Shown: positions 9,871-60,546, numbered from the stretch's first letter. The stretch is DNA of 64,000 nucleotides from Capsulimonadaceae bacterium (GCA_965213825.1 CBDCAE010000005.1:70443-134442), one strand, 5' to 3'. Translations and numbers: made by a program. The notes: generated by a model not told the origin, from the sequence alone.

Positions 9871-9874
9871 CAGG

Positions 9875-10576
9875 TCAACGACCAGAATCGCTTTTCCTCT
9901 GGTTCTCACTCTGTGGTTGAATCAGGGCAAAGTAGGCGCAACGATTATCGACAGCAAAAGAACATAAGTTGCATCGGGGGCGAAGCGCAGTACAAACTTT
10001 CGCACCGAAATCCAGGACCGCATAGTGGTAACTCACTGGGTCTGGTGAATACACAACGGCCTGGATTGCTCTTTTTACGTCTGAGCGCCGACGCGCCTCA
10101 CCCTGAATCTTGAGACCGAATATTCTGCCTACAACTCGGACAATATTTGTATCAACCAGAGCGATGTTTTGCCCATCGGCGAAACAACTAATGGCAGCAC
10201 TGGAGTAGTCGCCAATTCCGGGCAATGCTTTAAGTTTCTCCGCGTCAACTGGTAGTTCTCCTCCATATTGGCTGGAAGCCTCTTTAACAAAGTTGACGAA
10301 TTTCTCTGCACGCCATGCTAATCCCAGTGACAACAGCATCCTTTTAACTTCAACAGGATCACCTTCTTTGGCATCGTTTAGAGTTGGATATTTCTTAACG
10401 AAGTCTCGATATACAGGCATGACTTGATCGGCTTTGGTCCTTTGCAACATGAACTCAGATACGGCCACACGATATGGTGTTCTGTTTGTCCTCCAGGGGT
10501 AGTCTCTCTTTCCTTCTTGCCACCAGTCAAGAAGAAGTTTCTGATACAAATAGATGTTTTCTCTGCTTTGATCCAT
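9875..10576 (-). CDS. HhH-GPD / [4Fe-4S] DNA glycosylase of the MutY/Mig type (short form, no NUDIX domain)
   Basis: DYPWRTNRTPYRVAVSEFMLQRTKADQV, LKALPGIGDYSSAAI (HhH), LVDTNIVRVVGR (catalytic Asp position), and C-terminal Cys cluster CTALRPRCNLCSFAVDNRC. ATG 10576 (MDQSRENIY...) overlaps the MTase 3' end by 50 nt. Confidence 0.8.
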   Translation of the reverse strand: MDQSRENIYLYQKLLLDWWQEGKRDYPWRTNRTPYRVAVSEFMLQRTKADQVMPVYRDFVKKYPTLNDAKEGDPVEVKRMLLSLGLAWRAEKFVNFVKEASSQYGGELPVDAEKLKALPGIGDYSSAAISCFADGQNIALVDTNIVRVVGRIFGLKIQGEARRRSDVKRAIQAVVYSPDPVSYHYAVLDFGAKVCTALRPRCNLCSFAVDNRCAYFALIQPQSENQRKSDSGR

Positions 10577-12167: not shown

Positions 12168-12619
12168 AAGTTGAAATTATTTTCTCCAGGCATGAATGAC
12201 ACACGAGGGCAGTAGTTTTTACCAATGCTTAGAATGGAGCATTAACGAAAGAACTTTCTTTGCTCCCACCAGTATTAGTCTCAAGGTGCTACCTGGTTTT
12301 GTTCGACAGTGTTGAAAATTATATTGGAGTTGTTGCAGCCAACAAATATGCTAGTCTTGAACCAGCATCCTGATTTATGATTCTGTCACGCCGTCTTTAG
12401 TCATAAATGCGTACAGCCGTCATATTTTGTATCGGGCTTTTCAGACGATGAGGTACGAAACAGGATGATCTTCTGAAGTATCCATGTCTATTATCTCAGA
12501 GGGAAGTCCATCCTTCTGTTTGTCGATCAGGCCAGTCAGTTCTGTCGCTGGTGTCACAGTAATGCCGCCGACAATGCTGTTCTCCCACTCCTCTACCGAT
12601 TTCTCATCGGTTCGTTAAA

Positions 12620-12641
12620 GACCGTCTATTCTGAGACGGTC
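12620..12641. other. Perfect 8-bp hairpin GACCGTCT-ATTCTG-AGACGGTC in a gene-free AT-rich spacer
   Basis: Read directly. No U-tract follows. Confidence 0.3.
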
Positions 12642-13106
12642 CATCAGGCTGACACACGAAAAAAGCCTTCTATGTCAACTTGTTTTGTTCCTTGTCAGCA
12701 ATCGGCTACCTCCGCGTCGATCCACTTAGCAAAGGAAAAATTGGTGCTATGGAAATATCTATTATACATCACTACCACAAGTTTCAAGCACAAAACAGAT
12801 GTTGTGGCCTACTACTCCGTTGAAGTTTCGGGTGTCGCCACTCGCACCCGTGTCATGGTCATTATCGGCATACATATGATGCCCGATACCGTTATGTAGT
12901 TTTGGCTAAATCTTGCGTCGACAAAGCCAGCACCCTGCAACGCTGGAAAAGCACGGGTCTCAACAGACAGTCACTTCCTTTTTCACTTCTCGTCTTCAAC
13001 CCGGAACCGGGTCTTCATCTTTCGCTCTGTTCGCAACCTTGGCTGGTTCCCTTGCTATGTTCACTATTTCGTTACACGCCTGTTACAAACTCAACAGCCA
13101 GCAACT

Positions 13107-13556
13107 TTAAGGCGTAGAAATCTTGCGCCGCGCCGCATCCAGAACTTTCTCAATCTGCGTCCCTGTCAGACTACAGTTCGTGCACACAAGGCGAAGTTCC
13201 TGAAAGAATCCCTCAGACAACCCAAGCGGCTCGGCTCCGGCTTCGCCTGTATGTCGGGCCAGAAGTATGCCTGGCTCCACGGCAATGATCTCCTCGATCG
13301 CAGGTTCTGTGGCCTTGAAGTCGCAGAGCCAGCCGACAATTGCAATGCCCTCCGGCGAGGCTCCCAACGTGCCATCAATGAGATGGCTCACGAGGACCTC
13401 CAGTGGGTTTTCGACGATAGGTGTTACGCTCAAAGATTTACTCCTGGCAAGTTTGGTTCCACTCGCGTAGGTTCGCCAGTTGAAGAGCGCAATCCTGCCG
13501 CGTTCATCCCTCCATCTTTCGGGCTGGGCAGGTGTTTTTGAGCGGGCAAAAGACAC
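13107..13556 (-). CDS. Hypothetical protein
   Basis: 149-aa ORF with a GTG start overlapping the upstream gene by 53 nt. No recognisable motifs. Confidence 0.4.
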   Translation of the reverse strand: MSFARSKTPAQPERWRDERGRIALFNWRTYASGTKLARSKSLSVTPIVENPLEVLVSHLIDGTLGASPEGIAIVGWLCDFKATEPAIEEIIAVEPGILLARHTGEAGAEPLGLSEGFFQELRLVCTNCSLTGTQIEKVLDAARRKISTP

Positions 13557-14295
13557 AACCTTCGCCGGGATTGGGCTGATGCTTCTTATCGGTAAGGGTT
13601 TTGACCGCCGCGTTCATCAGAACAGCATGAATACCTTTAAGGTCGCGGTCTTCAACTCTTTCCATTGTGACCCGGCCGTCAGCAACAAACAGAAACTCTA
13701 CGCAAAAGCGCTTGAAGCCAAGGTCCTTGTACTCACGTTTCGCCAATGCCAACTGGATGTACACCTTACGCAAATCAATACCTGGCGGGTCTTCCCCAAT
13801 AGTAGTTTTGATTTCGCGGACACAGAGCCGATCCGGCTCTGAGGCTCGGACCAACGTCTGATCCAGACGGCAGGAAAATAATCCGATGACTTCACTCTCG
13901 TGCCAGATTGGTCCTTCGAGCGGCAGTTCTAAATCTAAAATGCCGGCTACGGCTTCGGGATCGGACTCATCGTTTCCAATGATCGCGCAAACCGAGGAGA
14001 TAACACGTTGCGTCGCGTCCCTCTTATCGACGCCTTCCGGCCAGCGGCCCTTGAAAACGGCAGTACGCGCCCAGGCTTCCAGGTGATCAACGCAGGGCCG
14101 ATCGCCAACCCGATTTTGGTAGGCCAACTTCAGAGTTTCGTGAGTAGCAATGCCATGCGAAACTGACTCGGCTCGGGGCCTGCTCGGCCACAACTTCTTG
14201 TTGCGGAGAGTGTCCCACCGGTAACCACATTCAGTATCGGCGAGGGCCGATGGTGTAATACGAGGCAATTCCGCGAAACGGGCGGTGTCGAGCAT
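13504..14295 (-). CDS. Cas4/RecB-like PD-(D/E)xK exonuclease with Fe-S cysteines
   Basis: N-terminal Cys (DTECGYRW), ILDLELPLEG, CVREIKTT (ExK), YIQLALAKREY, C-terminal CVFCPLKNTC. Confidence 0.7.
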   Translation of the reverse strand: MLDTARFAELPRITPSALADTECGYRWDTLRNKKLWPSRPRAESVSHGIATHETLKLAYQNRVGDRPCVDHLEAWARTAVFKGRWPEGVDKRDATQRVISSVCAIIGNDESDPEAVAGILDLELPLEGPIWHESEVIGLFSCRLDQTLVRASEPDRLCVREIKTTIGEDPPGIDLRKVYIQLALAKREYKDLGFKRFCVEFLFVADGRVTMERVEDRDLKGIHAVLMNAAVKTLTDKKHQPNPGEGCVFCPLKNTCPARKMEG

Positions 14296-14458
14296 CTTAC
14301 GTCTCCGGGCGGGGATGCGTCCCGATACGGCTGGGTCGCTCGAAGGCAGTGTACCCTAAAAATCATCAAAACGATGATTTATTATGAAACGGGGCCTCAG
14401 ATTTTTTACAAACTATTGTTCGCTTGTTAAAGTCAGTTTGTAGCGGTATTCTGTCCCT

Positions 14459-14704
14459 ATGCCAGACCAGCCGCTTGATACTGCTGCAGGAGATCCCGAA
14501 AACCCAAACTACATCGGCACGAGAGAAGCGGCCTTGATCCTGGGTGTCAGCGAGATCACTGTCCGATCTGCAATCAATGAAGGCAGGCTACCATTCCGGT
14601 TGGCATACGGCCACAAGGTCGTTTCGCGTGCCGCACTCGAAGAATACCGCGCCCGAACACAACCCGACGGTCAGCCCAAGCGCGGCCGACCGAAAAGCAA
14701 ATAA
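14459..14704 (+). CDS. xis: Excisionase-family helix-turn-helix DNA-binding protein
   Basis: IGTREAALILGVSEITVRSAINEGRLPF, followed by a basic tail. Confidence 0.7.
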   Translation: MPDQPLDTAAGDPENPNYIGTREAALILGVSEITVRSAINEGRLPFRLAYGHKVVSRAALEEYRARTQPDGQPKRGRPKSK

Positions 14705-14740
14705 ACTCACCCACGTCGTAAAGTTCCGACGTGGGTGAGT
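14705..14740 (+). terminator. Perfect 14-bp hairpin right after the xis-like stop (no clear U-tract)
   Basis: ACTCACCCACGTCG-taaagttc-CGACGTGGGTGAGT. Confidence 0.45.
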
Positions 14741-15118
14741 TCACTGGTTGAAGAGCAACATTGGTGCGGCGTCACATGGTCACTCTCAGCCGTTGCATTC
14801 CGGGTGGCCGCCGGGGCGTGGTTCTGATCAATGAGGGTGGAAACAAGTTGTTAGCCTCAGTGGCTTTCCCCGCTCCCGGCTCTCGCCGGCAACTTCTGGC
14901 GCCCTGGCCGGAAATGAAACCACTGAAATATGAGCCTTGATACCAAAAGCGGCGGGTTATCCGTCTGATACAGAGGGACACTCTTCCAGGCATTCAGCCG
15001 TAAATGGCTGCCGAAGATTAGACGCCGTTTGTCAATCATTATACCAACAATCCCAAGGCGAGAAGTATTTCGCCTTGGGATTGTCATCTCCTGGCCTGCA
15101 CCCTGCAGTGCTGCGACT

Positions 15119-15982
15119 TCATTGCCGAAGGTTGACTACCCGGACAAAGGCACGCCGCTCTTCAAGGCATACCTCGCTCATCGCACGAATTCGTGCAACT
15201 GTCTGCACATGTTTGTCGACTAAAACCAGTTTTCCGGGCGCGTGAGGATCTCCTGCTGCAGCCTCTTTCATGAGTTCTAAACGTTCGGCAAGAAGGCTAT
15301 CATAGGACTCGTAGCGCCAGGAATCGTCAAAAATCCGTGTTCCATCGAAGATGCACTTGGTAATAGATTTCGCCATTTCGAGCCTGGCGGGCCAAACTTC
15401 GTAGTCCCAGAATAGACACCCCGCCAATTCCATCAGGTTTGGACACAAGGACTGGTTTACGACTGCATATCGAACGATCGCCTCGCGTGGGATATGGCCC
15501 TTGTATGTAACAAGGCCAACTTTCTCGAATGACCGTACCCATTCCCGACGTGCTAGGGGTAGGCGCATAGAAATTGGTGGCGGGACAGGTGCTTCATGGC
15601 CTTTTTCGTTGACCTCATCATTAGCCCATCCGAGGTAGATCTCACCTGGATAAAGTTTTGCCAGATCCAGAAAGGTCGTGTCAATTTCGAGAATGACTGG
15701 GTCTGGCTGGGCTCCATCCTCAGAGCAGAAAAAAGATTGGTCGCCTGCATAATAAAATCCGTTCGCGCGCGTCAGGCCGACAAATCCAATCGGCGAGGGG
15801 TACGCGGATCTACCTTCCTCGTCTTCTTCAAGGGGGGGCAAACCATGAAGCAGGATGCTTTCAAGATCGTTCGTCGTGGTTCCATTGTAGATGCGTGGTG
15901 TGTAAAGAATACCGGGATGAGGACCGCAGGGGGCAGAGGGTTGGGAAGAGCAACGTTCGTCGTTGCCTTGGTTGTCGATCAT
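15119..15982 (-). CDS. Hypothetical protein (possible divergent ADP-ribosyltransferase/Tpt1-like fold; speculative)
   Basis: 287-aa ORF. IYNGTTTNDLESILLHGL ... PVILEIDTTFL ... FEKVGLVTYKGHIPREAIVRYAVV. A hairpin AATCCCAAGGCGA/TCGCCTTGGGATT lies downstream at 15049-15082. Confidence 0.5.
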   Translation of the reverse strand: MIDNQGNDERCSSQPSAPCGPHPGILYTPRIYNGTTTNDLESILLHGLPPLEEDEEGRSAYPSPIGFVGLTRANGFYYAGDQSFFCSEDGAQPDPVILEIDTTFLDLAKLYPGEIYLGWANDEVNEKGHEAPVPPPISMRLPLARREWVRSFEKVGLVTYKGHIPREAIVRYAVVNQSLCPNLMELAGCLFWDYEVWPARLEMAKSITKCIFDGTRIFDDSWRYESYDSLLAERLELMKEAAAGDPHAPGKLVLVDKHVQTVARIRAMSEVCLEERRAFVRVVNLRQ

Positions 15983-16285
15983 AGTTCCTTGTTTCTCCGA
16001 TCTTTTTGATGTTTAAATTTTGTTCCTGCAAGAAATTGCAACAAGGCACAGTGCTGGCTGCTGAATTTATTCGGTAAGTACCAAGATACGATTTCAGTCT
16101 CTGCATTGATTTATCGAAGCGGTCAACTCAGTTAAGCAAATGGGTCTCCATCATCGCCAAGTGCCACTGCTGGCAACTCCGGCTACTCGAACCATGGGTG
16201 ACACTATCAGCGTTTCGGATCCGGATCCGCGTTTGAGACAAGAAGCAGCGAACGAAGAAGGAATTTCCGTTGTCCCTGCTGTGTA

Positions 16286-16507
16286 TCAATCGTCATCAAA
16301 ATCCGCTCCGTCGATCAACGCGAAACTACGCGGCGAAAGCATCGACTTGAGTGCCGCGCGGTGTGTCATTCCTCCGGCCCGTAATCTCTTCAACTCTTCA
16401 TCCTCGTCAACCGATAACAAATAGGGTAGCCATCCTGGCAATGTGCCGGGAAGTGGATCTTCGCCAAGTGGGTCGTCCAAGTTTTCTTCTATCTTCTTTC
16501 CCTTCAT
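16286..16507 (-). CDS. Small acidic hypothetical protein
   Basis: 73-aa ORF, 22 nt downstream of the 197-aa ORF. Confidence 0.35.
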   Translation of the reverse strand: MKGKKIEENLDDPLGEDPLPGTLPGWLPYLLSVDEDEELKRLRAGGMTHRAALKSMLSPRSFALIDGADFDDD

Positions 16508-16529
16508 GACCGTTCTGAGCGGCCTGAAT

Positions 16530-17123
16530 TTACAACCGGTTCCGGTCCTGAACTGAACTTCGAAGTCCCGAAACCAGGTAACGCATTACGTCGCTGCGCC
16601 GATAAATCCCACGGCGCAGCGGGCGGATGTACCGGCTCACGCTTGCCTCCGGGCAGGCCAAGAGCACCGCCGCTTGGCTGCGCGTGAGGGCACAGTCTTC
16701 GCGCAGAGGAGAGACATCTTTGACAGCGGCGATGAACTCGGCCATGACGGTCGCAAGATCGGTTTTGTGCTGGTTGAAGACTTGAAGTTCGGTAGTATTC
16801 ACCTCTTCAAGTGACTTGTCAACAGCCTCGCCCAAGTCGCCGTCTTTCAAGAACTCACGGAGCAACCGCGAGGCATGAGGCCGAATTCCTTTCCGACGGC
16901 GGTAGAAATCCAAAAAACCTTGGACGGCTTCCACTGCGTCGGGCGGGAAGGCCATCCGGTTCCGTCCACCCCGGGCACCTAACTGCACCGCGACATCGTC
17001 CGTGCCGGTCAGATCGCTGAGAGATTTGTAACTGATAGATACCCCTGCTGCTTCCAGGCCCTGGTGCAAAGCGCGGAGCGTAAGCGCTTCGCCGGGTTGG
17101 GGCGGCAGTGCTGCTGTAGTCAT
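16530..17123 (-). CDS. Hypothetical protein, possible HTH regulator
   Basis: 197-aa ORF. C-terminal LTRSQAAVLLACPEASVSRYIRPLRRG resembles an HTH. Confidence 0.45.
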   Translation of the reverse strand: MTTAALPPQPGEALTLRALHQGLEAAGVSISYKSLSDLTGTDDVAVQLGARGGRNRMAFPPDAVEAVQGFLDFYRRRKGIRPHASRLLREFLKDGDLGEAVDKSLEEVNTTELQVFNQHKTDLATVMAEFIAAVKDVSPLREDCALTRSQAAVLLACPEASVSRYIRPLRRGIYRRSDVMRYLVSGLRSSVQDRNRL

Positions 17124-17232
17124 GGTGGTTCACAAGTTCCCTTCTTTTTTCACGAGACAAAGCGAGAGACAGAAAACTTCGATTTCTATCCCAATCGAGC
17201 CGGGGATGGGGGCAGAAAGCGGCCAGGAACAT

Positions 17233-17278
17233 CCAAAAAACAGCCCCCAGCAACCCAAAGTCATTTTGGGCTGTTTTT
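17233..17278 (-). terminator. Rho-independent terminator (stem flanked by an A-run and a T-run, so potentially bidirectional)
   Basis: Minus-strand reading: AAAAAAACAGCCC...GGGCTGTTTTTT, immediately after the stop at 17279-17281. Confidence 0.6.
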
Positions 17279-18922
17279 TTATGTTTGGCGCTGATTCCAC
17301 AGATTTTTCGCCCGCGTCTCGATCGCTGCCGTCGCGACTTCTCCGCAGCCTAATTCGGCAATTTCCGCTTTTGCCTTGGACAACCAGACGGCTTTGTCGT
17401 CTGCAGACAGCGCATCGTACCCATCGCCTTGGTCTTGGGGTGTGCGGCCTCCTGCCTCCAACGGCCGGGCTGGCCGGCCAGGACGAGACGGGCGGCTTGA
17501 ACGGGGATTCAAGTTTTCAGCCTGACGCTGCTGGTCAGTCGCTTTCCATCCCTCGATCTCTTTGAAACCCATTCGCTCTGCCAGCAAATTTTTTGCAAAG
17601 CGATTCACGATTTGACTGTCGCGCTGTGATGGCCGGAGCAGGGCCTTTGTTGCTTCCAGCAGTTCGCCTCGTTTCCCGTCGTTCATCGCCGCCCATTCCT
17701 CGTCCACAGCAGCCTGGTCAGTTTCTGAAAGCGCTGGGGCAGGCTTGGCAGGGGCGTAATGCGTGCGCGGCGCATTGTCGTGGGCTGTCTTGGCGCCGGC
17801 GGCGGCTTTGGTGATCGTTTCACGCAGGTAGAACCACTTGTTGTCAATTTCCTTCCCTTGGCCGATCAGATCGTTGATTTTCTCCAAACTTTCCAAGCAC
17901 AGCCGCGTAGCCGTGGCGGGGCTTGCGCCTTCCAAGGCTTTGTTCAGGGCCTTGCGGAGCGCGGCGGGTCGGCACTTGTCATCGCAGAATTCCTCGATGA
18001 ATGACCGAACCACTTTTTCGTACGCGGGGTCCGGAGTCTCATGGTCGGCAGAGGCAGGTGGGTCGTCACCACTTAGCAAGGGCTGGGGGGCGTTGGGAGG
18101 CGCTACTGGGGCGTTGGGAGGCCCGCCCTCCGTGTCCGAGTCTTTGGCCTCGTCTTGCTCGAAAAGCGAAGCATCGACATCATCATCGTCGGTCGAGTAG
18201 CCACTATCGGCGCAGGGCATATAAATATAAGATGATGATGAATTTCCTTCAAGGTTTAATTCAAAGATTCTTAGTACCGCCATTTTACTCACAAAACTTG
18301 CAGAAAAATGTGCAGTTTTGAATGATTTTCCGTACTTGAATACTGATTTTTCTTCCGAAAATGAAGATTTTTTAGCCTTGCGAGCAGAAAAAAAACCATT
18401 CTTGGAAAAGGGCCGCGACGAAGCAAGCGACTCAGCCAACTTTTTCCGAGCCTGAGCGCGGGCGGCTTTGAGGTCTGCGGCTTTCTGCTTCTTTTCGTCT
18501 TCGCTTTTGATGATTTCGCGCAGACGTTCGCAGTGCGCTTCATCCGCGATGACGGCAATGATACTGCCGTTGAGACGACGGTGCTGGTGGATCAAGCCAT
18601 CCTTTTGGATTTGACCGAAACACTGCTTGAGGTATTTGACACTGCGATTGCATTTTGCTGCAAGGAGTTCAATTTCGCAGGCATTCACAGGCGCATAGCC
18701 CCGAATCGGGCCATCAGGCGCTTTGACATTCGAGGCGAATTCCACCCAACGAAAAAGTTTCTTCTTAATGCCGCCGAGTCGCGGGTCGTTGTAATCGGCA
18801 TCAACGTCCTGCCCCCAGGACTCGCCAGCGGCCTTCATCGCCTCCGAATCTTTCTGAGGCAAGTACGGAAAATTATTTGTGCAAGGCTTGACATCATCAA
18901 GCAAAAGAGGGTAAATAATCAT
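17279..18922 (-). CDS. Large element-encoded protein, putative replication/DNA-binding function
   Basis: Longest ORF runs to 19039; first ATG is at 18922 (MIIYPLLLDD...). Low-complexity acidic and proline linkers. AT-rich internal patch at 18210-18420. Confidence 0.5.
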   Translation of the reverse strand: MIIYPLLLDDVKPCTNNFPYLPQKDSEAMKAAGESWGQDVDADYNDPRLGGIKKKLFRWVEFASNVKAPDGPIRGYAPVNACEIELLAAKCNRSVKYLKQCFGQIQKDGLIHQHRRLNGSIIAVIADEAHCERLREIIKSEDEKKQKAADLKAARAQARKKLAESLASSRPFSKNGFFSARKAKKSSFSEEKSVFKYGKSFKTAHFSASFVSKMAVLRIFELNLEGNSSSSYIYMPCADSGYSTDDDDVDASLFEQDEAKDSDTEGGPPNAPVAPPNAPQPLLSGDDPPASADHETPDPAYEKVVRSFIEEFCDDKCRPAALRKALNKALEGASPATATRLCLESLEKINDLIGQGKEIDNKWFYLRETITKAAAGAKTAHDNAPRTHYAPAKPAPALSETDQAAVDEEWAAMNDGKRGELLEATKALLRPSQRDSQIVNRFAKNLLAERMGFKEIEGWKATDQQRQAENLNPRSSRPSRPGRPARPLEAGGRTPQDQGDGYDALSADDKAVWLSKAKAEIAELGCGEVATAAIETRAKNLWNQRQT

Positions 18923-19141
18923 GGAGTCCGCTGACTTTTGGACACGCACAACTTCCCGGAAGTCGTGTCCAACCTTTCTTTTTTGGAATAAAGGGGAGCA
19001 CGACCGCTGGTGCAAAAAGCCTTGGCGGGCTTTTTGCACGGAACGCGGTCATGTTTCCTTTGAACGACAGTGATCTTTGAATGATGATAAATCCCGGCCC
19101 GGCTTCCCACTAGGGAGTCCGGGTCGTTTCTACGAAAGCGG

Positions 19142-20296
19142 CTACTTCGTGTACACCCGCTTCCGGCTAGGCTTCACGGCCGCAGCCGCTTTCGCAGCGC
19201 GTTCGGCCTCTCGGGCTTGGTAGTTCGCCAGAACACCGGCGACAGGGGCGGCAGCGTCGTGAACTGCCTTCAACGCCTCGACTTCATCGTGCGAATAAAT
19301 GTCATGCGCTTGATCAGTCCGGTGTCCCATGATTTTTTTGGACATATCTTTATCCACGACGTCATGTTTTGATGAAGAATAATGGCGCAAGTCGTGCCGG
19401 CGAATCACGCGTTCAATGCCAGCACGGACGCGGCGTTTATTCCACTGTCGCCCCCAGGAACCTGGGTCGATTTTCCCCCCGGATTCGCTGACAAAAATGA
19501 AGTCATTACCAGTTTGCATTTTTAGGCGCATTTCCAACCACGGTTCGAAGGCCACGTCGCAATATTCCTTTGACAAGAACGCAAGCCGGTCGTCGCCATT
19601 TTTCGTTTTCTCCAACAAGATCGTTCGCCGCCCCTGGTCGTCACGCGGAGACAGGTGGCACAGACGCGCAGAGAAAAACTCCCCCACCCGCATTCCTGTC
19701 TCAGCCAGTCCCAATGTCGCAGCAATCTCGCGAACCCGGAAGTAACGCCGCGCATCCAGGGACTTGAAGCGCGACCCGCCAGTGGCTTCGTCAGCCCAGT
19801 CTTCCTCGATCTGTCTCACAATTGCGTCAAGTTCATGTTCGGCGACAGAGCGTTTTTCTGACTTGTCGCAGATTTCCCACGCTTCAGCGCGTTCCAGAAG
19901 GTCTTTCTTGAAAAGTTCGGCGCGGTAGGCCCACGCAAACACCGCCTTTGTCTTGACCTCCCGGTGCTTCACGCTGCGATCCTTCATTCCCCGAGCCTTG
20001 TATTCGCGCAGGCACTCCCAGAAATTTCGGGCATTAACCCCGGCAGGCCTGATTCCCTGTCGCGTATACCATTCTCCAACGTCTTCGAGCGTATTGCGAA
20101 CGTCGTACAGATGCTTACGCGTCCGGATTTTGTTTTTGTTTTTGAGGTACTCGTCGTACCCGGAAATTAACCCGTCCCAGCCAATCGTTTGACCGAGGCT
20201 GAACTGGCCTTCCTCTTCTTCTGCTTGTTGCCAGACGTATGACATTTCTCTCTCCCTGTGCTGTTCTGGGCTGCTGACCACATGCTGTTCGTCCAT
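19142..20296 (-). CDS. int: Tyrosine recombinase / phage-type integrase
   Basis: LAETGMRVGEF (Arg I), RRHDLRHYSSS (H-x-x-R), GHRTDQAHDIYSH (His/Tyr). Adjacent to the tRNA 3' end. Confidence 0.9.
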   Translation of the reverse strand: MDEQHVVSSPEQHREREMSYVWQQAEEEEGQFSLGQTIGWDGLISGYDEYLKNKNKIRTRKHLYDVRNTLEDVGEWYTRQGIRPAGVNARNFWECLREYKARGMKDRSVKHREVKTKAVFAWAYRAELFKKDLLERAEAWEICDKSEKRSVAEHELDAIVRQIEEDWADEATGGSRFKSLDARRYFRVREIAATLGLAETGMRVGEFFSARLCHLSPRDDQGRRTILLEKTKNGDDRLAFLSKEYCDVAFEPWLEMRLKMQTGNDFIFVSESGGKIDPGSWGRQWNKRRVRAGIERVIRRHDLRHYSSSKHDVVDKDMSKKIMGHRTDQAHDIYSHDEVEALKAVHDAAAPVAGVLANYQAREAERAAKAAAAVKPSRKRVYTK

Positions 20297-20363
20297 TCGC
20301 CGAAAACAACAGCGCAGTTTACCCGAAAACGCCTAGACTGTTCAACCCTCATTTCCGAAGCGC

Positions 20364-20400
20364 CAAAAAAATTCGGCCAGGAATTTTTCCTGGCCGAATT
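20364..20400 (-). terminator. Rho-independent terminator downstream of tRNA-Thr
   Basis: Minus-strand reading: AATTCGGCCAGGAA-AAA-TTCCTGGCCGAATT followed by TTTTTT. Confidence 0.7.
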
Positions 20401-20415
20401 ACTCTGAACTTGTTA

Positions 20416-20487
20416 AGCCGACACGCGGATTCGAACCGCGGACCTGCTGTTTACGAAACAGCTGCTCTACCACTGAGCCATGTCGGC
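20416..20487 (-). tRNA. tRNA-Thr (anticodon CGU)
   Basis: Reverse complement: GCCGACA-TG-GCTC-AGTGGTA-GAGC-A-GCTGT-TTCGTAA-ACAGC-AGGTC-CGCGG-TTCGAAT-CCGCG-TGTCGGC-T. Full cloverleaf. CCA is not encoded. Confidence 0.9.
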
Positions 20488-20520
20488 ATATTTGTTTTCT
20501 AAGAGGAAAGCGACGGCGAG

Positions 20521-24911: not shown

Positions 24912-24999
24912 CCCCCCAGCCCCCAACAATGGGGGAGCAATGCGGAACGGACGGCGTCTGCGCTGAATTGTGGCTCCCCCAAAATTGGGGGCTGGGGGG
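24912..24999. repeat. REP-like composite palindrome, family 1 (two inverted 27-nt units, 34-nt spacer)
   Basis: CCCCCCAGCCCCCAACAATGGGGGAGC ... GCTCCCCCAAAATTGGGGGCTGGGGGG. Second copy at 50577-50665. Confidence 0.8.
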
Positions 25000-27873: not shown

Positions 27874-28049
27874 GGGAAATCCTCTATGCCTGCGGCATTG
27901 CTTCGTATCGCTTCGTAAAACCGGCGCGTCGTTTACGGGCGCAGCGCGAGGGTCCCAATCATGCGGCGCAGGCTTCCTGCCTGCGCCGGTTCCACCGTCA
28001 TATTCAGAAGAGGGTTATGAGTTCGTTTTAGCATAATTGTAAGAACCTG
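27874..28049 (-). promoter_or_regulatory. Structured ileS 5' leader with a T-box-like motif and mutually exclusive helices
   Basis: RNA sense: GACGGUGGAACCGGCGC (27999-27983). Hairpin GGCGCAGGC/GCCUGCGCC (27987-27965) competes with AACCGGCGC pairing to GCGCCGGUUUU (27927-27917). Confidence 0.35.
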
Positions 28050-28209
28050 CCCCGTCTCGTTCCTCGCCACCCCTCCCTAGGAAGGAAGGGTTAAGAGTAA
28101 GAGGTGCAGAGCTGTGTTCGCAATCTTGGTTCGCAGTGTTAGTTCCCAGTCTTGTTCTTTATCTTTTACCCTTCCTTCTTAGGGAGGGGTGGCGAGGAAC
28201 GAGACGGGG
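28050..28209. repeat. MITE-like element: 42-nt terminal inverted repeats (41/42 complementary) around a 76-nt core
   Basis: CCCCGTCTCGTTCCTCGCCACCCCTCCCTAGGAAGGAAGGGT ... ACCCTTCCTTCTTAGGGAGGGGTGGCGAGGAACGAGACGGGG. Starts 4 nt after the rmlD stop. Confidence 0.75.
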
Positions 28210-28213
28210 TAGG

Positions 28214-29110
28214 TCAAATCTTCCCCTGCTCCCGCGCGGACGCGAGGAACGCATCGAGGGCATCTTCCCAGGGGCGCAGGGTATCCTGGCCCATCAGCTC
28301 TAAAGCGTAGCGGCGCATGACACTGTACGCGGGGCGCTTGGTCGGCGAACCGAAGCGCTGGGCGTAGTCGTTGGATGTAATCGGCACAACGGGAACGCTG
28401 CCTAAGCTCGTTTTGGCAAGAATGGCCTTCGCGAAGCCTTCCCAATTCGTTTCTCCGGCGTTTGAGACATGGTAGACGCCGTAAAGCCCCGTCGAGACGA
28501 TCTGAATAATTGCGTTTATCAAGTCTACGGTGTAAGTCGGAGTGCCGTACTGGTCGGCGACAATCGGCAATTCAGGCTTGGTCTTAGCAAGATTAGCTAC
28601 TGTGTACGGGAAATTCTTGCCGTGGACGCCGTACAGCCAGGATGTTCGGACGACATAACAGCGCCGGCAAGCCGCACGGGCGAGGTTCTCACCTGTCAGT
28701 TTGGACGCCCCATAGTGACTGATTGGGTTCGGCGTGTCGAACTCCGTATAGGGTGTTTTTTTCGTGCCGTCAAACACGAAGTCGGTTGAGATGCAGACCA
28801 AAGCCGCGCCGACTTCTTCCGCCGCGCCTGCCACCGACCACGATCCCAAAGCGTTGACTTTATGTGCCAAATCGGGATCGCGCTCGCAGCCGTCCACATT
28901 TGTATAGGCCGCGCCGTGGAAGACCAGCTCCGGCTGAAGCTCGGCAAAGAGTGTCCGAACCGCATGGACATCGGTGATGTCCAGTGGGACAATACCATTG
29001 ACTGCCGCTGCACCGACATCGGTGGGGAAAACGTGATGCCCCTGCTCGGTGAAAATTCGCCGAGCATCCGTGCCGAGCATTCCCGCCGCGCCTGTGATGA
29101 GTATTCGCAT
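28214..29110 (-). CDS. rfbD: dTDP-4-dehydrorhamnose reductase
   Basis: MRILITGAAGMLG Rossmann start (internal ATG 29110), YGASKL, YHVSNAGETNWEGFAKAI. Confidence 0.85.
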   Translation of the reverse strand: MRILITGAAGMLGTDARRIFTEQGHHVFPTDVGAAAVNGIVPLDITDVHAVRTLFAELQPELVFHGAAYTNVDGCERDPDLAHKVNALGSWSVAGAAEEVGAALVCISTDFVFDGTKKTPYTEFDTPNPISHYGASKLTGENLARAACRRCYVVRTSWLYGVHGKNFPYTVANLAKTKPELPIVADQYGTPTYTVDLINAIIQIVSTGLYGVYHVSNAGETNWEGFAKAILAKTSLGSVPVVPITSNDYAQRFGSPTKRPAYSVMRRYALELMGQDTLRPWEDALDAFLASAREQGKI

Positions 29111-29172: not shown

Positions 29173-29228
29173 CACGGGGCTGAACCCCCGTGCTTTGAAA
29201 GCGCAAGCCCCCACCTTCGCGGGCGAAG
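29173..29228. repeat. Modular hairpin repeat, family 2 (modules A+B)
   Basis: CACGGGGCTGAACCCCCGTG + CTTTGAAAGCGCAAGCCCCCACCTTCGCGGGCGAAG. Related copies at 41858-41953 and 58604-58721. Confidence 0.8.
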
Positions 29229-31575: not shown

Positions 31576-32115
31576 ATGGCAATCCCAAATGGTCTTGCTG
31601 ACTCCTGGTTGCAGTTTGTAGACGGTCCCCTCTTGAACCAAGGCGACCTATTGGACGACTGCTATATTCCGATACTTCTCCCAAACTTTAGTCCGCTTGA
31701 AGGCGAGCTTGTCAATTTGGACTTGGAAGTCCGCAGCATTATCGTTCTCACGCAAAGCTGCGATCTTGAAAATGGCAAAGCACCCCTTGTCGCCGTCTGC
31801 CCTCTTTATCGTCTTAGCGAATGGGAAGAAGCCAATCCTGAATTTCGGGCTAAAGGCCGCTGGGAGTCCGTGCGGCAAGTCCGAGTGGAAGGTCTGCATC
31901 TTTTGGCAGGGCTTGCCGGTCCGGAAGTCAATCAAGACTGCCTTGCGGTAGACTTCCGCCAGATTTATAGCCTGCCAATCGGTTATTTGACAGCTCAGGC
32001 GGAACAAGCGGGCCGAAGGGCGCGGCTGCATTCGCCCTATTTGGAGCATTTCGCCCAGGCGTTTGCCCGCTTTTTCATGCGGGTTGGCCTGCCTTCCAAC
32101 ATTGCCAAGTTTTAG
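31576..32115 (+). CDS. Hypothetical protein
   Basis: 179-aa ORF. IIVLTQSCDLENGK ... no family recognised. Confidence 0.45.
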   Translation: MAIPNGLADSWLQFVDGPLLNQGDLLDDCYIPILLPNFSPLEGELVNLDLEVRSIIVLTQSCDLENGKAPLVAVCPLYRLSEWEEANPEFRAKGRWESVRQVRVEGLHLLAGLAGPEVNQDCLAVDFRQIYSLPIGYLTAQAEQAGRRARLHSPYLEHFAQAFARFFMRVGLPSNIAKF

Positions 32116-32756: not shown

Positions 32757-32860
32757 CGGTTGACTTACCTTGCTGATGAGAGAGAATGCTTTATCATACC
32801 CACACAGGCATTTATAGATGTGAGGCGGACGCAGAGTTGAAGACCATGCGTTAAAACGCA

Positions 32861-32999
32861 CGGCTATTGGGCGCGGACGCCGGGGACCCGGCACTGGAAG
32901 TACCGGGCTACTGTTGAGTGGAAGTCGAAGCGACTAAAGACTCGCGTTCGGTCTCAGCCCCGCGAAGCGGTGGGTTCCCGGCGTCTGCGCCCAATAGCC
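32861..32999. repeat. Long inverted repeat: 28-nt arms (2 mismatches) separated by about 82 nt
   Basis: GGCTATTGGGCGCGGACGCCGGGGACCC ... GGGTTCCCGGCGTCTGCGCCCAATAGCC, in a divergent intergenic region. Confidence 0.7.
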
Positions 33000-33040
33000 A
33001 TGTCCTTCAGGACAGGGTTCCTTTTCAGCACCACGAACAA

Positions 33041-33442
33041 ATGCCTCAGCCGCCAAACAACCAGAAACCGCCTCAGCCGGAGCAGCACGGCAAAATCTGG
33101 CCTCCTCCCCTAAAGACGCCTCCGCCTCAGCGCGTCCCTGCGTCCTTAAATGACCCTACCTACTTGACAGGCAAAAATTGGCTGGACGCGATTTTAGGAA
33201 TTCCCGCTGGCTTCTTGACCGGGTTCCTGCTGTATGGTGTCTTCAGTCTTTGCTTTCAGTTGTTCTGCAAGCCGCCCTGGCACCAGCCCCAGATGCTCAC
33301 CATGTGCAGCGTCGGTGCTATCTTAACGACTGCTTCTTACCTGCTGATCAGCAGGAAATACTCTTTGTTCGCGTTCACCATGTGGTTTGGCGGCATTCCG
33401 CTCTACGCCGTGCTGTTTCTGCTGGCTTGGATATTCTCATGA
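33041..33442 (+). CDS. Hypothetical membrane protein with a proline/glutamine-rich N-terminus
   Basis: ATG 33041 (MPQPPNNQKPP...). Three hydrophobic segments. Confidence 0.45.
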   Translation: MPQPPNNQKPPQPEQHGKIWPPPLKTPPPQRVPASLNDPTYLTGKNWLDAILGIPAGFLTGFLLYGVFSLCFQLFCKPPWHQPQMLTMCSVGAILTTASYLLISRKYSLFAFTMWFGGIPLYAVLFLLAWIFS

Positions 33443-33459
33443 GTCTCCAATTGTAAGTC

Positions 33460-33557
33460 GCTAAATCAGCGAGCGGCTTAGAGGTATAGATAGTGACTGA
33501 TGAGATCGGCGCTTAATGCTTCGGGTGATCTGTCTATGGTTTAGACGCCACGGCGCT
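33460..33557 (-). pseudogene. Decayed second copy of the DUF58 gene 3' end (last ~33 codons)
   Basis: My hand alignment to 34750-34848 gives about 80 of 98 positions identical plus one 1-nt indel. The copy contains in-frame TAA stops. Confidence 0.75.
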
Positions 33558-33570
33558 TGAAGTCGCAGTT

Positions 33571-34113
33571 TCATCTATTGATCCTTGCGGCAATTTTTGG
33601 ATACAGCGCATCCAAATCATCTTCTTCCCATTTCATGCCGGCAGGCTCGCCTGGAATGAAACCGGCTCCATCAGACGGCATCTCACGGCCTGCCTTTTCT
33701 TCATAAACTTCACCTGCAACGTAGCCGAGTTCTTCGCATTCCAGCCAAGCATCACCCCACTCGATGTCAGTTTTGGTGAGATCAGCGAGGCCGTCTGGGT
33801 CAGCTAACGCCGCCTCAAATATGGTCTGCCCTTGCCCAATGAGCCACCGGCGAAAATACTCGAAGCCATCATCCGAGCCGCCGCCATTTATCAGATAGGC
33901 GGCTCCCCACAAATCCCACCGATACGCGGCTTGTCGGCACTCGTTGAAGATGCGCTCAAACGCAATGAGTTCTTCTACCGGAATTAGCGACAGAGAAGAT
34001 TTAAGAGCAACAGCCTGCGCCTCGCATTCGCCGCCGCTTTTCGCGTGAGCGTCCTCAATTAGTTGCCAGAATTGTGCTTTATCCAAATCGTCTTTCTCAA
34101 TCCACAAGGCCAT
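33571..34113 (-). CDS. DUF4240 domain protein
   Basis: YRWDLWGAAYLINGGGSDDGFEYFRRWLIGQG. Confidence 0.7.
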   Translation of the reverse strand: MALWIEKDDLDKAQFWQLIEDAHAKSGGECEAQAVALKSSLSLIPVEELIAFERIFNECRQAAYRWDLWGAAYLINGGGSDDGFEYFRRWLIGQGQTIFEAALADPDGLADLTKTDIEWGDAWLECEELGYVAGEVYEEKAGREMPSDGAGFIPGEPAGMKWEEDDLDALYPKIAARINR

Positions 34114-34741
34114 TGTGCCTCAGCCAGCCCACTACCTGCGACATTTGTTCGCGGCGTCCCTGCCAAAAAGCGTTCGTCAATCTTCCTTTGTACAAGCTAT
34201 TTTTCGAAGCAACAAACTCGATGAGATGGTTAATTGCCATGTCGGTTTTCAGGTTCTGCCAGGCATCAAGGTAACTTGATAAATCATCTTCCGCTTGCCC
34301 GATCGCACACAGGTACTCGTCTATCGCAACCGCCTCCATCGGTATGGACAGTACGAACAGCCACAGTGCCATCAGGTAGTGCCGAACAGCCGCGCGTTCC
34401 TGCTCCGGCCAGTCCTTCCAGTCTGCATAATGCAGCTTGCCGAAAAGAACTTCTACATCTATTTCATGGGCGATGCTGTCTGCTTCGGTGACCAGTTCCA
34501 GCAGACGCGGCAGGAAGTGCTTGAAGTCATTCTCAGTTCCCCATGTCGTTAAGGCTTTGAAGGCGTAGCGGCTGAGGTCATCCGTCATAAGGCCACGCAA
34601 AGGTTTCCGATGAAGATTGCTTTTATCTTCGTCCGAAGCGCAGCAAGGGCATCCATCTATCTTTTGGGCAATCGGATAATCTGTGAAGACTTTGTAAAGT
34701 TCTTCAATCGCCACTGCCAGCGCTTGTTTTTCTGAAGTCAT
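34097..34741 (-). CDS. Hypothetical protein (CPCC motif; immunity-protein-like context)
   Basis: 214-aa ORF starting 8 nt after the DUF58 stop. IDGCPCCASDEDK ... FKHFLPRLLELV. Confidence 0.5.
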   Translation of the reverse strand: MTSEKQALAVAIEELYKVFTDYPIAQKIDGCPCCASDEDKSNLHRKPLRGLMTDDLSRYAFKALTTWGTENDFKHFLPRLLELVTEADSIAHEIDVEVLFGKLHYADWKDWPEQERAAVRHYLMALWLFVLSIPMEAVAIDEYLCAIGQAEDDLSSYLDAWQNLKTDMAINHLIEFVASKNSLYKGRLTNAFWQGRREQMSQVVGWLRHNGLVD

Positions 34742-34749
34742 AGATGTCT

Positions 34750-36069
34750 CTAAATCAGCGAGCGGGCTTTGAGGTCTAAGTAGTGGTTGATGAGGTCGGC
34801 GCTGAGGTCTTCGGGAGGGCTGTCTACGGTCCAGACGCCCCGGCGCTTTAGTACCGAAATGGCGGCGCGGCGCTCCTGCAAGACCTGGACGGCGACGGCT
34901 TTCTGGTAGACTCCCGCGCTGTCTTCGGGAATGCTGTTGGCGGCGGCCAGGATGTTCGGGTCGCTCACGGTGACGCAGACGACGCGGTGGCTGTCGGAGA
35001 GCATGGGGACGGCGTCGAGGATTTGGGCGGAGGAGTCCGGGTCTACGAGGTCAGAGAACAGCACAATCAAAGAGCGGCGGCGCCAGCGGGTGGAGAGGTT
35101 CTGGAAGGCCGCTTTGTAGTCGGTCTCGACCATGCGGGCGTTGAGGTTGTAGAGGCTTTCCAGAATGCCGTAGACCTGGGCTTTGCTTTTGGCGGGCGGC
35201 AGGTAGGCACGGACTTCGGCGTCAAAGGCCATCAGGCCCACTTTGTCGTCGCCTGCCGCCGCGACATACGCCAGCATCAGGGCGGTGTTGACCACATAAT
35301 CCAGCTTCGCCATCTTCTGAATTCCTTGCAGCATGTTCCGGCCTGTGTCCAGCATCAAAATGATGTTCTGCGAGCGCTCCGCCTCATACTGCCGCGAAAT
35401 CAGCTTGCCCCGGCGGGCGGTCGCGCTCCAATCAATCTTTTTGTATTCATCCCCCGGCACATACTCCCGCAGTGACTCAAACTCCGAGCCGCCTCCGCGC
35501 ACTTTGGCCGTGCGGATGCCGAGCTGCATCAGCCGCCCGCGCCGGGCCAGCAGCTCGTATTTCGCCGTTTCCACGAGGTTCGGATAGACTTTGATCGTCT
35601 GTTCAGCGCGAATTCGGCCCTGACGCTCGATCAGCCCTAAGCGCCCCGGATAGCGAAAAAAGAGGTCTCCAAAGGCAAAGTCCCCTTTCGCGGGCGGCGT
35701 CACCTGGTAGGCGAATGACAGCGGGCGCGGGTCAGGCGGCAAAAGGAGTGTGCGCTCGGCAGAGCTGCCCAGGTCAAAGGTCGGCGGCGGCAGGTCACGC
35801 ACCCGCAGGCGCAGAGCCATTGGTGACTTGTTCTGCGCCGTCACCGTCACAGGGTTTGCAACCCCTAACGACAGTTTTTCGTCTACCGCGCGGGTCAGCG
35901 TCAGGGCCGTTTCCGGCTTTGGCGCGGCGAAGAAATCGGCCAGTGTGCAGGCCGCAAGCACGGCATTGTAAACCAGCACGACGGCCAGCAGCCAGGGCGC
36001 GAAACCGACAAGCAGCAGCGGCAGTGCACCGAGGGCGAGAAGAACGACAAAGCGGGGAGTTAAACGCAT
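34750..36069 (-). CDS. DUF58 (vWA-like) protein
   Basis: GGSEFESLREYVPGDEYKKIDW, two N-terminal TM segments. Confidence 0.85.
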   Translation of the reverse strand: MRLTPRFVVLLALGALPLLLVGFAPWLLAVVLVYNAVLAACTLADFFAAPKPETALTLTRAVDEKLSLGVANPVTVTAQNKSPMALRLRVRDLPPPTFDLGSSAERTLLLPPDPRPLSFAYQVTPPAKGDFAFGDLFFRYPGRLGLIERQGRIRAEQTIKVYPNLVETAKYELLARRGRLMQLGIRTAKVRGGGSEFESLREYVPGDEYKKIDWSATARRGKLISRQYEAERSQNIILMLDTGRNMLQGIQKMAKLDYVVNTALMLAYVAAAGDDKVGLMAFDAEVRAYLPPAKSKAQVYGILESLYNLNARMVETDYKAAFQNLSTRWRRRSLIVLFSDLVDPDSSAQILDAVPMLSDSHRVVCVTVSDPNILAAANSIPEDSAGVYQKAVAVQVLQERRAAISVLKRRGVWTVDSPPEDLSADLINHYLDLKARSLI

Positions 36070-41800: not shown

Positions 41801-41857
41801 AAACCTGTCATTCGGGAAAGCCAGAAGTACAGGTTGAGGCGGCTTAGAGATGATTTC

Positions 41858-41953
41858 ACGGGGCTGAACCCTCGTGCTTTGAAGTACAAGCCCCCGCCTT
41901 CGCGGGCGAAGGCGGGGGCTTGCTCTTTTAAAGCCCTGCCGTTTAGGGCAGGG
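41858..41953. repeat. Modular hairpin repeat, family 2 (modules A+B+C)
   Basis: CACGGGGCTGAACCCTCGTG; perfect 16-bp hairpin CAAGCCCCCGCCTTCG-cggg-CGAAGGCGGGGGCTTG; AAAGCCCTGCCGTTTAGGGCAGGG. Confidence 0.8.
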
Positions 41954-49139: not shown

Positions 49140-49268
49140 CGTTCTAGCCTGTCACCCGGCATCAGGAAACTGGCCCTGCCTCGTGCGCCTGGTCACTTAT
49201 TGCCAGATGCAGAAGGCAGTGCCAGTTTCCTGGAGTCTACTTCCTGTCACTATTCCAGAAAGACACCG

Positions 49269-50576: not shown

Positions 50577-50665
50577 CCCCCCGGCCCCCGATAAGGGGGG
50601 AGCCAGAGTCAAAAGAGGTCTGCTCCTGTCTTAATCATGCTCCCCCATTATTGGGGGCTGGGGGG
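50577..50665. repeat. REP-like composite palindrome, family 1 (second copy)
   Basis: CCCCCCGGCCCCCGATAAGGGGGGAGC ... GCTCCCCCATTATTGGGGGCTGGGGGG, between the SBP and permease genes. Confidence 0.8.
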
Positions 50666-58603: not shown

Positions 58604-58721
58604 CCCTGCCCTGAACGGCAGGGCTTTAAAAGTGCAAGCGCCCGCCTTCGCGGGCGAAGAATATATCCGATGCCCGCTCAGGCGGGGAATTGCCCTTCAA
58701 GGCACAGGGGTTCAGCCCCGT
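58604..58721. repeat. Modular hairpin repeat, family 2 (modules C-inverted, B, extra hairpin, A-inverted)
   Basis: CCCTGCCCTGAACGGCAGGGCTTT; AAAAGTGCAAGCGCCCGCCTTCGCGGGCGAAG; CCCGCtcagGCGGG; CACAGGGGTTCAGCCCCGTG. Confidence 0.75.
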
Positions 58722-58729
58722 GTTCTCAG

Positions 58730-59771: not shown

Positions 59772-59776
59772 AGAAG

Positions 59777-59829
59777 TTACTCTTCCACCCGAATCCAGTT
59801 TTCAATGGCGAAAGCGATGTGCAGGCAGT
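59777..59829 (-). pseudogene. Second, orphan copy of the hom 3' end (last 16 codons plus stop)
   Basis: 44/53 nt identical to 60547-60599 (hand count). Reads CLHIAFAIENWIRVEE*, against hom RLHIVSAIENWIRVEE*. Confidence 0.8.
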
Positions 59830-60544: not shown

Positions 60545-60546
60545 GG

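Follow-up and report, generated by a model that had tools for sequence, protein, structure and literature searches.

How a decayed second copy of the end of a conserved gene came to lie behind two small accessory genes is the question raised by one locus in a stretch of 64,000 nucleotides (nt) of DNA from a Capsulimonadaceae bacterium (GCA_965213825.1 CBDCAE010000005.1:70443-134442). At this locus the gene for a DUF58 protein is followed by an open reading frame (ORF) of 214 codons, ORF214, by a DUF4240 gene and then by a degenerate repeat of the DUF58 3' end, which is called the relic below. The whole 64-kb stretch is referred to as the window and all coordinates are counted from its first letter; DUF58, ORF214, DUF4240 and the relic all lie on the minus strand. 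The features of the locus are as follows.

34750-36069, minus strand: DUF58/VWA gene, 439 amino acids (Pfam DUF58, E=1.4e-36, and VWA_2)
34746-34848, minus strand: functional repeat copy, the last 99 nt of DUF58 including the stop codon, plus 4 nt beyond
34097-34741, minus strand: ORF214, with its ATG 8 nt past the DUF58 stop and a GCPCC motif
33571-34113, minus strand: DUF4240 gene (PF14024, E=8e-44)
33559-33570, minus strand: non-homologous joint, 12 nt from the DUF4240 stop to the first base of the relic
33457-33558, minus strand: relic, a degenerate DUF58 3' end with two in-frame TAA codons and one frameshift, contiguous with the downstream flank
32918-33442, plus strand: ORF174, convergent, which adjoins the DUF58 stop in empty-site genomes

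The segment at 33457-33558 duplicates the DUF58 3' end as a dead copy. Self-BLAST of the window aligned it to 34746-34848 with 80.6% identity (83 of 103 columns, one gap, E=3.5e-19), and a 7-kb local search returned the pair at E=1.8e-21. An earlier note on this DNA had counted by hand about 80 identical positions in 98 with one indel, and had made its case depend on the similarity being significant; the computed alignment bears out the count and is significant. Over the 99 coding bases, 18 substitutions and one 1-nt deletion separate the relic from the functional copy, and 13 of the 18 run from G or C in the functional copy to A or T in the relic, with 3 in reverse and 2 between A and T, which are the numbers that the note had given, along with the in-frame TAA codons. 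The relic reads KRRGV, a stop, TIDRSPEALSADLISHYLYL and a second stop before the frameshift, both stops being TAA, and its guanine-cytosine (GC) content is 0.50 vs 0.61 in the functional copy. The pair is identical over 16 nt at the stop and over 8 nt at the 5' border, and the similarity reaches 4 nt beyond the stop codon (AGAC/CGAC). Only two convincing local direct repeats were observed in the 64 kb, this pair and one at hom, and the DUF58 repeat is not dispersed within the window, where self-BLAST gives two copies only. No further partial copies of the DUF58 3' end were detected with an nhmmer profile in about 1 Mb of related loci, and no Rfam families were found in 32800-35000.

The DUF58 interval was compared across 34 genome loci and 11 further contigs, all from relatives (labelled L plus a number), and the DUF58 orthologs are 68-96% identical in the 34 Capsulimonadaceae/Armatimonadota loci. 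Different genes directly follow the DUF58 stop in different relatives:

ORF214: L002, L004, L008-L010, L102/L103, L105 and L106 (at least nine relatives)
DUF4240: L014, L030 and L107-L112 (at least seven relatives)
convergent ORF174: L001 and L003 (empty sites)
DUF4136: L006, L007, L020 and L023

As read from these gene orders, the window is a seam of two alternative arrangements in a hypervariable interval between DUF58 and a SpoIIM-like gene, because each side of it is colinear with different relatives. Window 36101-34120, which holds DUF58 and ORF214, runs colinearly with L105 at 87.6% over 1982 nt, with matches in L103, L106, L002 and L010 too, and window 33558-32139, which holds the relic, ORF174 and DUF4136, is colinear with L003 7222-8633 (80.9% over 1449 nt). 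The first order runs from DUF58 to ORF214 (and on to DUF4240), the second from DUF58 to the convergent ORF174, a palindromic element and DUF4136; the two share the last 99 nt of DUF58 and 4 nt beyond it, and exactly one non-homologous joint lies at the seam, where the end of DUF4240 meets position -99 of DUF58. The order in L112 is DUF58, DUF4240, a palindromic element and DUF4136, and in L112, L107 and L014 a palindromic intergenic element takes over at the DUF4240 stop; of that element, tentatively, only the letters TGAAAC can be recognised at the window joint. The empty site, which the note had proposed to seek in related genomes, was found in L001 and L003, where ORF174 (tblastn, 77% in L003 and 45% in L001) lies 13-20 nt from the DUF58 stop. 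The note had further placed the entry of a cassette exactly at the DUF58 stop; an insertion-type seam with a duplicated terminus is indeed present, and the entry point is doubtful, because ORF214 or DUF4240 next to DUF58 is a common colinear arrangement.

Two side observations concern the same interval. ORF179 (31576-32115), between the SpoIIM-like gene and DUF4136, has no Pfam match and a GC content at third codon positions (GC3) of 0.56, and it is missing from L001 and L003, as another hotspot insertion, without flanking duplication. L011, L033 and L034, contigs of one metagenome-assembled genome (MAG; JANXNV01), either end at the last 141 nt of DUF58 or open with them, and they diverge directly past the DUF58 stop, so that two interval haplotypes co-exist in one population.

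Neither copy of the DUF58 terminus looks foreign, and the functional end is phylogenetically native. Its last 99 nt are closest to L003 (6 differences), followed by L001, L007 and L014 (9 each), relatives rank alike for these 99 nt and for the rest of DUF58, and the four-fold sites that differ from L003 number 4 of 17 in the functional end vs 72 of 228 in upstream DUF58. The proposal of the note that the cassette had carried its own replacement 3' end thus finds no support, the functional terminus being congruent with the rest of its gene. For the relic, L003 (15 differences) and the functional copy (18) are the nearest sequences, and polarisation with four orthologs assigns 12-13 of the 18 differences to the relic itself, with an AT bias. 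With a divergence of 0.18, the relic lies within what neutral divergence from the closest relatives sampled allows (K4 = 0.34-0.50); one event in this lineage and unconstrained decay after it would be enough to explain it, and such an age appears plausible. The motif GCATTAAGC, shared with L010, and three sites shared with L003 may leave room, over a repeat of only one hundred bases, for two distinct alleles from the start. Site patterns against L001, L002 and L003 gave no signal of a recombination tract in DUF58, because the three are equidistant.

The same architecture is repeated in the window at hom, as the note had reported, with the following features.

60547-61839, minus strand: hom (homoserine dehydrogenase, named from sequence reading)
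60546-60599, minus strand: functional hom repeat copy, the last 53 nt including the stop, plus 1 nt beyond
59832-60544, minus strand: toxin-antitoxin cassette (Pfam)
60176-60544, minus strand: DUF433 antitoxin-like gene, its ATG 2 nt past the hom stop
59832-60176, minus strand: DUF5615/Mut7-C PIN-like toxin gene, its stop 2 nt ahead of the relic
59776-59829, minus strand: hom 3'-end relic (nhmmer, E=1.4e-10)
59346-59771, minus strand: ORF141, with no assigned function, preceded by the hom relic wherever present (window, L035, L040)

Self-BLAST aligned 59776-59829 to 60546-60599 with 83% identity over 54 nt (E=2.5e-8), on either side of a 0.72-kb insert that holds the DUF433 and DUF5615 genes only. 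The functional copy contains a Shine-Dalgarno-like GAAGAA ahead of the antitoxin gene, and the relic contains a GGAAGAG motif and a stop just ahead of the ORF141 ATG, with 5 nt from stop to ATG. In a metagenome scan that yielded 67 related hom loci, the DUF433/DUF5615 cassette was also found directly after hom in L036, L038, L039, L042, L047 and L090, and the empty site is represented by the distant L053, L055, L057 and L061, where a flavin-reductase gene lies within about 13 nt of hom; by these gene orders, the hom-to-flavin-reductase interval is a hotspot too. No palindromic element follows the toxin gene at hom in the relic-less haplotypes, where other ORFs follow. The hom relics of the window, L047 and L090 have a derived CGCTTT in common and, on this sign, are orthologous, pointing to one old event inherited across species whose hom proteins are 86% identical. 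The toxin-antitoxin cassettes are old residents with a mostly vertical history and not recent arrivals, because the divergence of the DUF433/DUF5615 cassette tracks that of hom. In L035, which carries a MazF-type pair, 9245-9302 and 9975-10032 are identical at 58 of 58 positions, a stretch that takes in 9 nt beyond the stop as well as the next gene's ATGAG. Since L040, whose cassette and border are the same, has 79%, the 100% of L035 suggests that gene conversion has acted on the two copies. This candidate conversion would also have rewritten the N-terminus of the ORF141 homolog.

Twelve repeat-flanked inserts were observed in all, two in the window and ten further in relatives, with repeats of 39-117 nt at 79-100% identity, so that the recurrence suspected by the note extends well beyond hom; the ten further inserts represent about seven founding events. 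The duplicated gene end, locus, repeat and cargo are as follows.

DUF58 3' end, window: 103 nt, 81%; ORF214 and DUF4240
hom 3' end, window: 54 nt, 83%; DUF433 and DUF5615
hom 3' end, L047: 50 nt, 84%; DUF433 and DUF5615
hom 3' end, L090: relic of about 50 nt, by nhmmer profile; DUF433 and DUF5615
hom 3' end, L035: 58 nt, 100%; MazF-type toxin-antitoxin pair
hom 3' end, L040: 47 nt, 79%; MazF-type pair, homologous to that of L035 by sequence
hom 3' end, L045: 47 nt, 87%; MazF-type pair, homologous to that of L035 by sequence
SpoIIM-like ORF332 3' end, L030: 101 nt, 97%; ORF209 and ORF89
SpoIIM-like ORF332 3' end, L034: 117 nt, 95%; ORF331 and an IS3-like remnant
TriTu-immunity gene 3' end, L043/L044: 79 nt, 92%; Abi_2, antisense
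phosphoglycerate-mutase gene 5' end, L045: 83 nt, 94%; RHH and PIN
109-aa ORF 5' end, L050: 49 nt, 80%; RHH antitoxin and putative PIN toxin (by homology to that of L045)
ribosome-binding site/start of an NmrA-like gene, L038: 39 nt, 85%; S-adenosylmethionine (SAM) methyltransferase

No mobility gene able to move the inserts was found, L034 having only its truncated IS3-like remnant, and the empty site of L034 is represented by L012. In L034 and L035 the duplication extends 9-10 nt past the stop and takes in the first 5-6 nt of the older downstream gene, and because of this the duplication is seen to copy resident sequence; in L030 it ends 27 nt ahead of the stop, and the gene gains a new 8-codon tail. 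A side observation was made at L034 2021-2257, where the SpoIIM-like 3'-end relic is fused in frame to an IS3-family OrfA-like N-terminal fragment (MSIKRRIFTKDFKQQILYEVQAGKS), and another at L045 13827-15406, where ParD/ParE and RHH/PIN cassettes are stacked between purC-like and phosphoglycerate-mutase genes, with the 83-nt copy of the mutase 5' end sitting between the two cassettes. Some candidates were set aside: the RHH-PIN cassettes of L045 and L050 as a recent transposition, since 69% identity over 147 nt marks them as old paralogs; the L002 repeats 8091/10904 and 11022/12398 as gene-end duplicates, which are a small non-coding repeat and an intrinsic-terminator hairpin; and a restriction-site idea (GTCTC) for the junctions, which fitted only one gene.

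This architecture, which the note had thought possibly undescribed, has been on record since 2000 and 2010 as insertion with long target duplication (Nobusato, Uchiyama, Ohashi & Kobayashi 2000, Gene 259:99; Furuta, Abe & Kobayashi 2010, Nucleic Acids Research, PMC2853133), and our cases match it; its mechanism is not established. The published cases are restriction-modification units without mobility genes, with direct repeats of 46-423 bp that align to one copy at the empty site and often span a translation start or stop (PMC2853133), and for such units Kobayashi and colleagues raised a connection with double-strand breaks; a 2013 review repeats the pattern for restriction-modification systems, but not for toxin-antitoxin systems (PMC3874152). 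Lim et al. (2012, PMC3457768) consider two routes: the duplication may accompany a direct insertion, or homologous replacement may follow a tandem duplication. Our inserts agree in being small units (below 20 kb) of deviant GC content and selfish or addictive cargo, without mobility genes, between direct repeats that are longer than 30 bp, variable in length (39-117 nt here), not dispersed (as seen for DUF58 in the window and in related loci) and present as a single copy at the empty site of relatives, and that span starts or stops while the target gene stays intact. The cargo of the 2010 survey, a restriction-modification unit, which is no part of the architecture, was not found here. Unlike the published cases, which concern restriction-modification genes "and other DNAs", the inserts carry toxin-antitoxin, Abi and methyltransferase genes and unassigned proteins, the host belongs to the Armatimonadota, several of the events are old enough for their relics to have decayed to 79-87% and to be shared by descent between species, and the inserts gather at recombination hotspots that in other genomes hold the same cassettes without repeats.

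For the origin of these inserts, homology-anchored illegitimate recombination combined with selection is the mechanism that we prefer, at a confidence that stands midway between doubt and belief. DNA with accessory genes beside a conserved terminus, supplied by a sister haplotype or by a circularised or linear fragment, would pair by homology with the resident terminus, and its other end would be joined illegitimately upstream of the resident stop codon; in an equivalent route, a circle carrying about 100 nt of the terminus would integrate by a single crossover, and neither a cassette-borne nor a dedicated recombinase would be needed. Selection would then act as a filter, as only terminus-duplicating events would keep the conserved gene intact along with the expression signals of its neighbour. 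The spacing in these operons is short, with the next start 2-14 nt past the stop and a Shine-Dalgarno-like motif inside the last codons of the upstream gene, and both hom repeat copies carry such a motif for the gene that follows; because the motif of the next gene lies in the end of the upstream gene, only terminus-duplicating insertions would keep both genes working. Addiction-type cargo (toxin-antitoxin, Abi for abortive infection) would resist loss through recombination between the repeats. Later the relic would decay under AT-biased mutation, as in the window, might be homogenised by gene conversion, as perhaps in L035 with its 58 of 58 positions, or could be deleted with the cassette by recombination between the repeats, regenerating the empty site.

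One non-homologous joint with colinearity on both sides fits homology-facilitated illegitimate recombination, in which one homologous anchor and one illegitimate joint, typically at 3-10 nt of microhomology, would give just such a seam. That process was reportedly shown by experiment (de Vries and Wackernagel 2002) in bacteria capable of natural transformation, usually accompanied by loss of recipient DNA. Several points weigh against the homology-anchored mechanism. It is deduced from end products, and either side of the seam may be the one that moved. At most AA is visible as microhomology at the DUF58-locus joint, as read from the joined sequence, and a possible 5-nt CGATG is present at the joint of the MazF cassette at hom. 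The borders of the cassettes leave very little space, 0-14 nt past the last stop and 2-8 nt ahead of the first ATG, and selection must be invoked because a random illegitimate joint does not predict them. The upstream repeat borders at hom, at about -53/-51 for the DUF433 type vs -47/-46 for the MazF type, fall within about 6 nt of each other, and those of L030 and L034 at ORF332 within 3 nt; such near-coincident borders of different cassettes could reflect a site preference, or shared ancestry together with cassette turnover and concerted evolution. Relic-less cassettes at the same hotspots (L036, L039, L042, L103) show that duplication is not obligatory.

Among the other explanations, a true long target-site duplication at insertion is fairly unlikely. 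Staggered breaks about 40-120 nt apart would be filled in, or a replication template switch would leave the target, copy the cassette and re-enter upstream, the break being perhaps provoked by the cargo or by a nearby hairpin. The native look of both copies, the resident downstream bases included in L034 and L035 and the varying repeat lengths, as in the published cases, agree with it, and the window joint sits where relatives have a palindromic element; however, the cargo toxins are of RNase type (PIN, MazF) and not DNases, ORF214 and DUF4240 each hold their position in relatives without duplication, and the end product is the same as for homology-anchored joining.

Less probable still is the model of the earlier note, in which mini integrative cassettes are moved in trans by a site-specific (tyrosine) recombinase, with the crossover at the upstream repeat border and a surrogate gene end (attP) brought by the cassette, in parallel to phage 21/e14 at icd and to tRNA-targeting islands. 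The upstream repeat border is nearly the same across cassettes at hom and at ORF332, with the downstream border ranging from -27 to +10, the cassettes are tightly packed in an integron-like manner, and a tyrosine integrase is encoded in the window. This integrase, however, adjoins tRNA-Thr at the edge of its own island. The statement of the note that no recombinase is present accordingly holds for the insert, and for the sites in or next to all 12 inserts, but not for the window, which encodes the integrase (19142-20296) of a classical island, with nothing that links it to the cassettes. Moreover, the functional copy is native and not foreign, the bases taken from the older downstream gene in L034 and L035 are resident sequence, and cassette divergence tracks that of the host, with no sign of recent hopping. 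On a conserved core at both junctions, a check that the note had suggested, no motif common to 8 left and 8 right junctions or to different target genes was found by eye, and identical blocks inside a pair and near-coincident borders at one gene were seen. The analogy of the note to tRNA-targeting integrases also loses ground with the repeat lengths of 39-117 nt and the duplication of gene 5' ends and of a ribosome-binding-site region. Phages 21 and e14 at icd of E. coli encode their own integrase and bring a recognisably foreign surrogate 3' end. Our locus resembles them in a diverged 3'-end pseudogene distal to the insert with the gene left intact, and differs in the lack of an integrase and in a native-like functional end.

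A dedicated form of cassette shuttling in the Capsulimonadaceae, guided by a trans-acting recombinase or by homology, in which conserved genes would lend their last (or first) 40-120 nt both as landing pads and as a source of translation signals, is a distinctly long shot, and it is kept mainly because the borders coincide and are tight. If true, it would explain the shared repeat borders at hom and at the SpoIIM-like gene as well as the tight cassette borders, and the system would be a functional analogue of the integron without attC sites. Like integron arrays, the inserts are small, promoterless, tightly packed cassettes of one or two genes, often toxin-antitoxin, stacked behind a fixed point; unlike them, the repeats are host coding sequence and not attC hairpins, with no intI/attI and no GTTRRRY cores seen. 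Integron attC sites as such were rejected, the repeats being colinear copies of conserved coding sequence without RYYYAAC...GTTRRRY cores by inspection, and no intI was found among the window ORFs scanned.

A tandem duplication of gene end plus cassette, followed by replacement of the second cassette through homologous recombination with a haplotype of different downstream content, is improbable. Tandem duplications are frequent in bacteria, and several co-existing interval haplotypes are documented here. The route has also been put forward in print to account for this end product (Lim et al. 2012, pathway (ii), PMC3457768), but it requires two events where one suffices, and no duplicated-cassette intermediate was observed in 112 loci. 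Chance similarity or a metagenome-assembly chimera of two strains is excluded, its probability being next to nil: the break of the contigs of one MAG (L011, L033, L034) exactly at the DUF58 3' end indicates strain variation beginning there, but the repeat has E=3.5e-19, the relic with its stops and frameshift is no living allele, no k-mer of DUF58 recurs at the joint to DUF4240, assemblies independent of this one (L047, L090) also carry the orthologous hom relic, and the source contig is 466 kb long. A diversity-generating retroelement was also rejected, since the substitutions are not specific to adenine, with A on the coding strand at only 7 of the 18 differing positions of the relic, the changes fall on both strands and no reverse transcriptase is in the insert, as was a displaced C-terminus or orphan module of a polymorphic toxin, since the relic is the same sequence as the functional end in degenerate form and DUF58 is not a toxin.

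The two genes, which are all that the 1.19-kb DUF58-locus insert holds, are co-oriented and lower in GC, as the note had described, with GC3 of 0.57 and 0.52 for ORF214 and DUF4240 vs 0.78 for DUF58, and GC contents in 200-nt windows of 0.46-0.56 vs 0.58-0.67; no promoter or terminator was detected in the insert. ORF214 has no Pfam or NCBIfam match, and its 60 homologs, none of them named, occur sparsely in Armatimonadota, Verrucomicrobiota and Chryseobacterium, with a G-C-x-x-C motif that hardly varies and with Trp and His residues that are invariant. The AlphaFold2 (AF2) model is all-alpha (predicted local distance difference test, pLDDT, 92; predicted template modelling score, pTM, 0.90) and has no fold match in PDB by Foldseek (best E about 1), so that, on the model, ORF214 may belong to a possible uncharacterised fold family. 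The DUF4240 family is widespread and uncharacterised. In the start region at 34084-34113, the ATG of the window ORF overlaps ORF214 by 17 nt, homologs of 173-177 aa span 94-95% of this ORF with their starts matching TTG 34086, and the gene in L112 and L107 starts TTG GAC AAA; judging from these starts, the true start is likely the TTG at 34086, 10 nt past the ORF214 stop.

Elsewhere in the window, families of palindromic GC-rich intergenic elements of 60-170 nt were observed, similar to repetitive extragenic palindromic (REP) sequences or miniature inverted-repeat transposable elements (MITE), with for example GGGGGAGC...GCTCCCCC arms and CACGGGGCTGAACCCCCGTG hairpins. They lie at 24912-24999, 28045-28214, 49163-49232, 50577-50665 and 32859-33002, and also at 29173-29228, 41857-41953 and 58604-58726; the element at 32859-33002, an inverted repeat, is overlapped by the 5' part of ORF174, and related elements stand directly after DUF4240 in L014, L030, L107 and L112. 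A classical genomic island occupies window 4300-20500, with a low-GC (0.45-0.48) defence block, and no att direct repeat of the tRNA-Thr end was found for it; its features are as follows.

20416-20487, minus strand: tRNA-Thr(CGT), at the island edge, followed by the integrase
19142-20296: tyrosine integrase (PF00589), adjoining tRNA-Thr
13504-14295: PDDEXK_1 nuclease
10527-12167: C-5 cytosine methyltransferase
6883-9870: Z1-domain protein
5973-6965: DUF4420 PD-(D/E)XK protein
4475-5980: HATPase_c_3 protein

For annotation, these loci advise caution, as a short "pseudogene" piece of a gene end can be the trace of an insertion seam. In the 25 years since insertion with long target duplication was first described, no mechanism has been established for it, and nearly all recorded cases concern restriction-modification genes. 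To this the present lineage adds many instances with other cargo and of different ages (100% to 79% repeat identity), together with empty sites, relics orthologous across species, one gene-conversion candidate and coinciding borders of independent cassettes, and it thereby offers useful comparative material on how accessory genes without a recombinase enter tight operons without breaking them.

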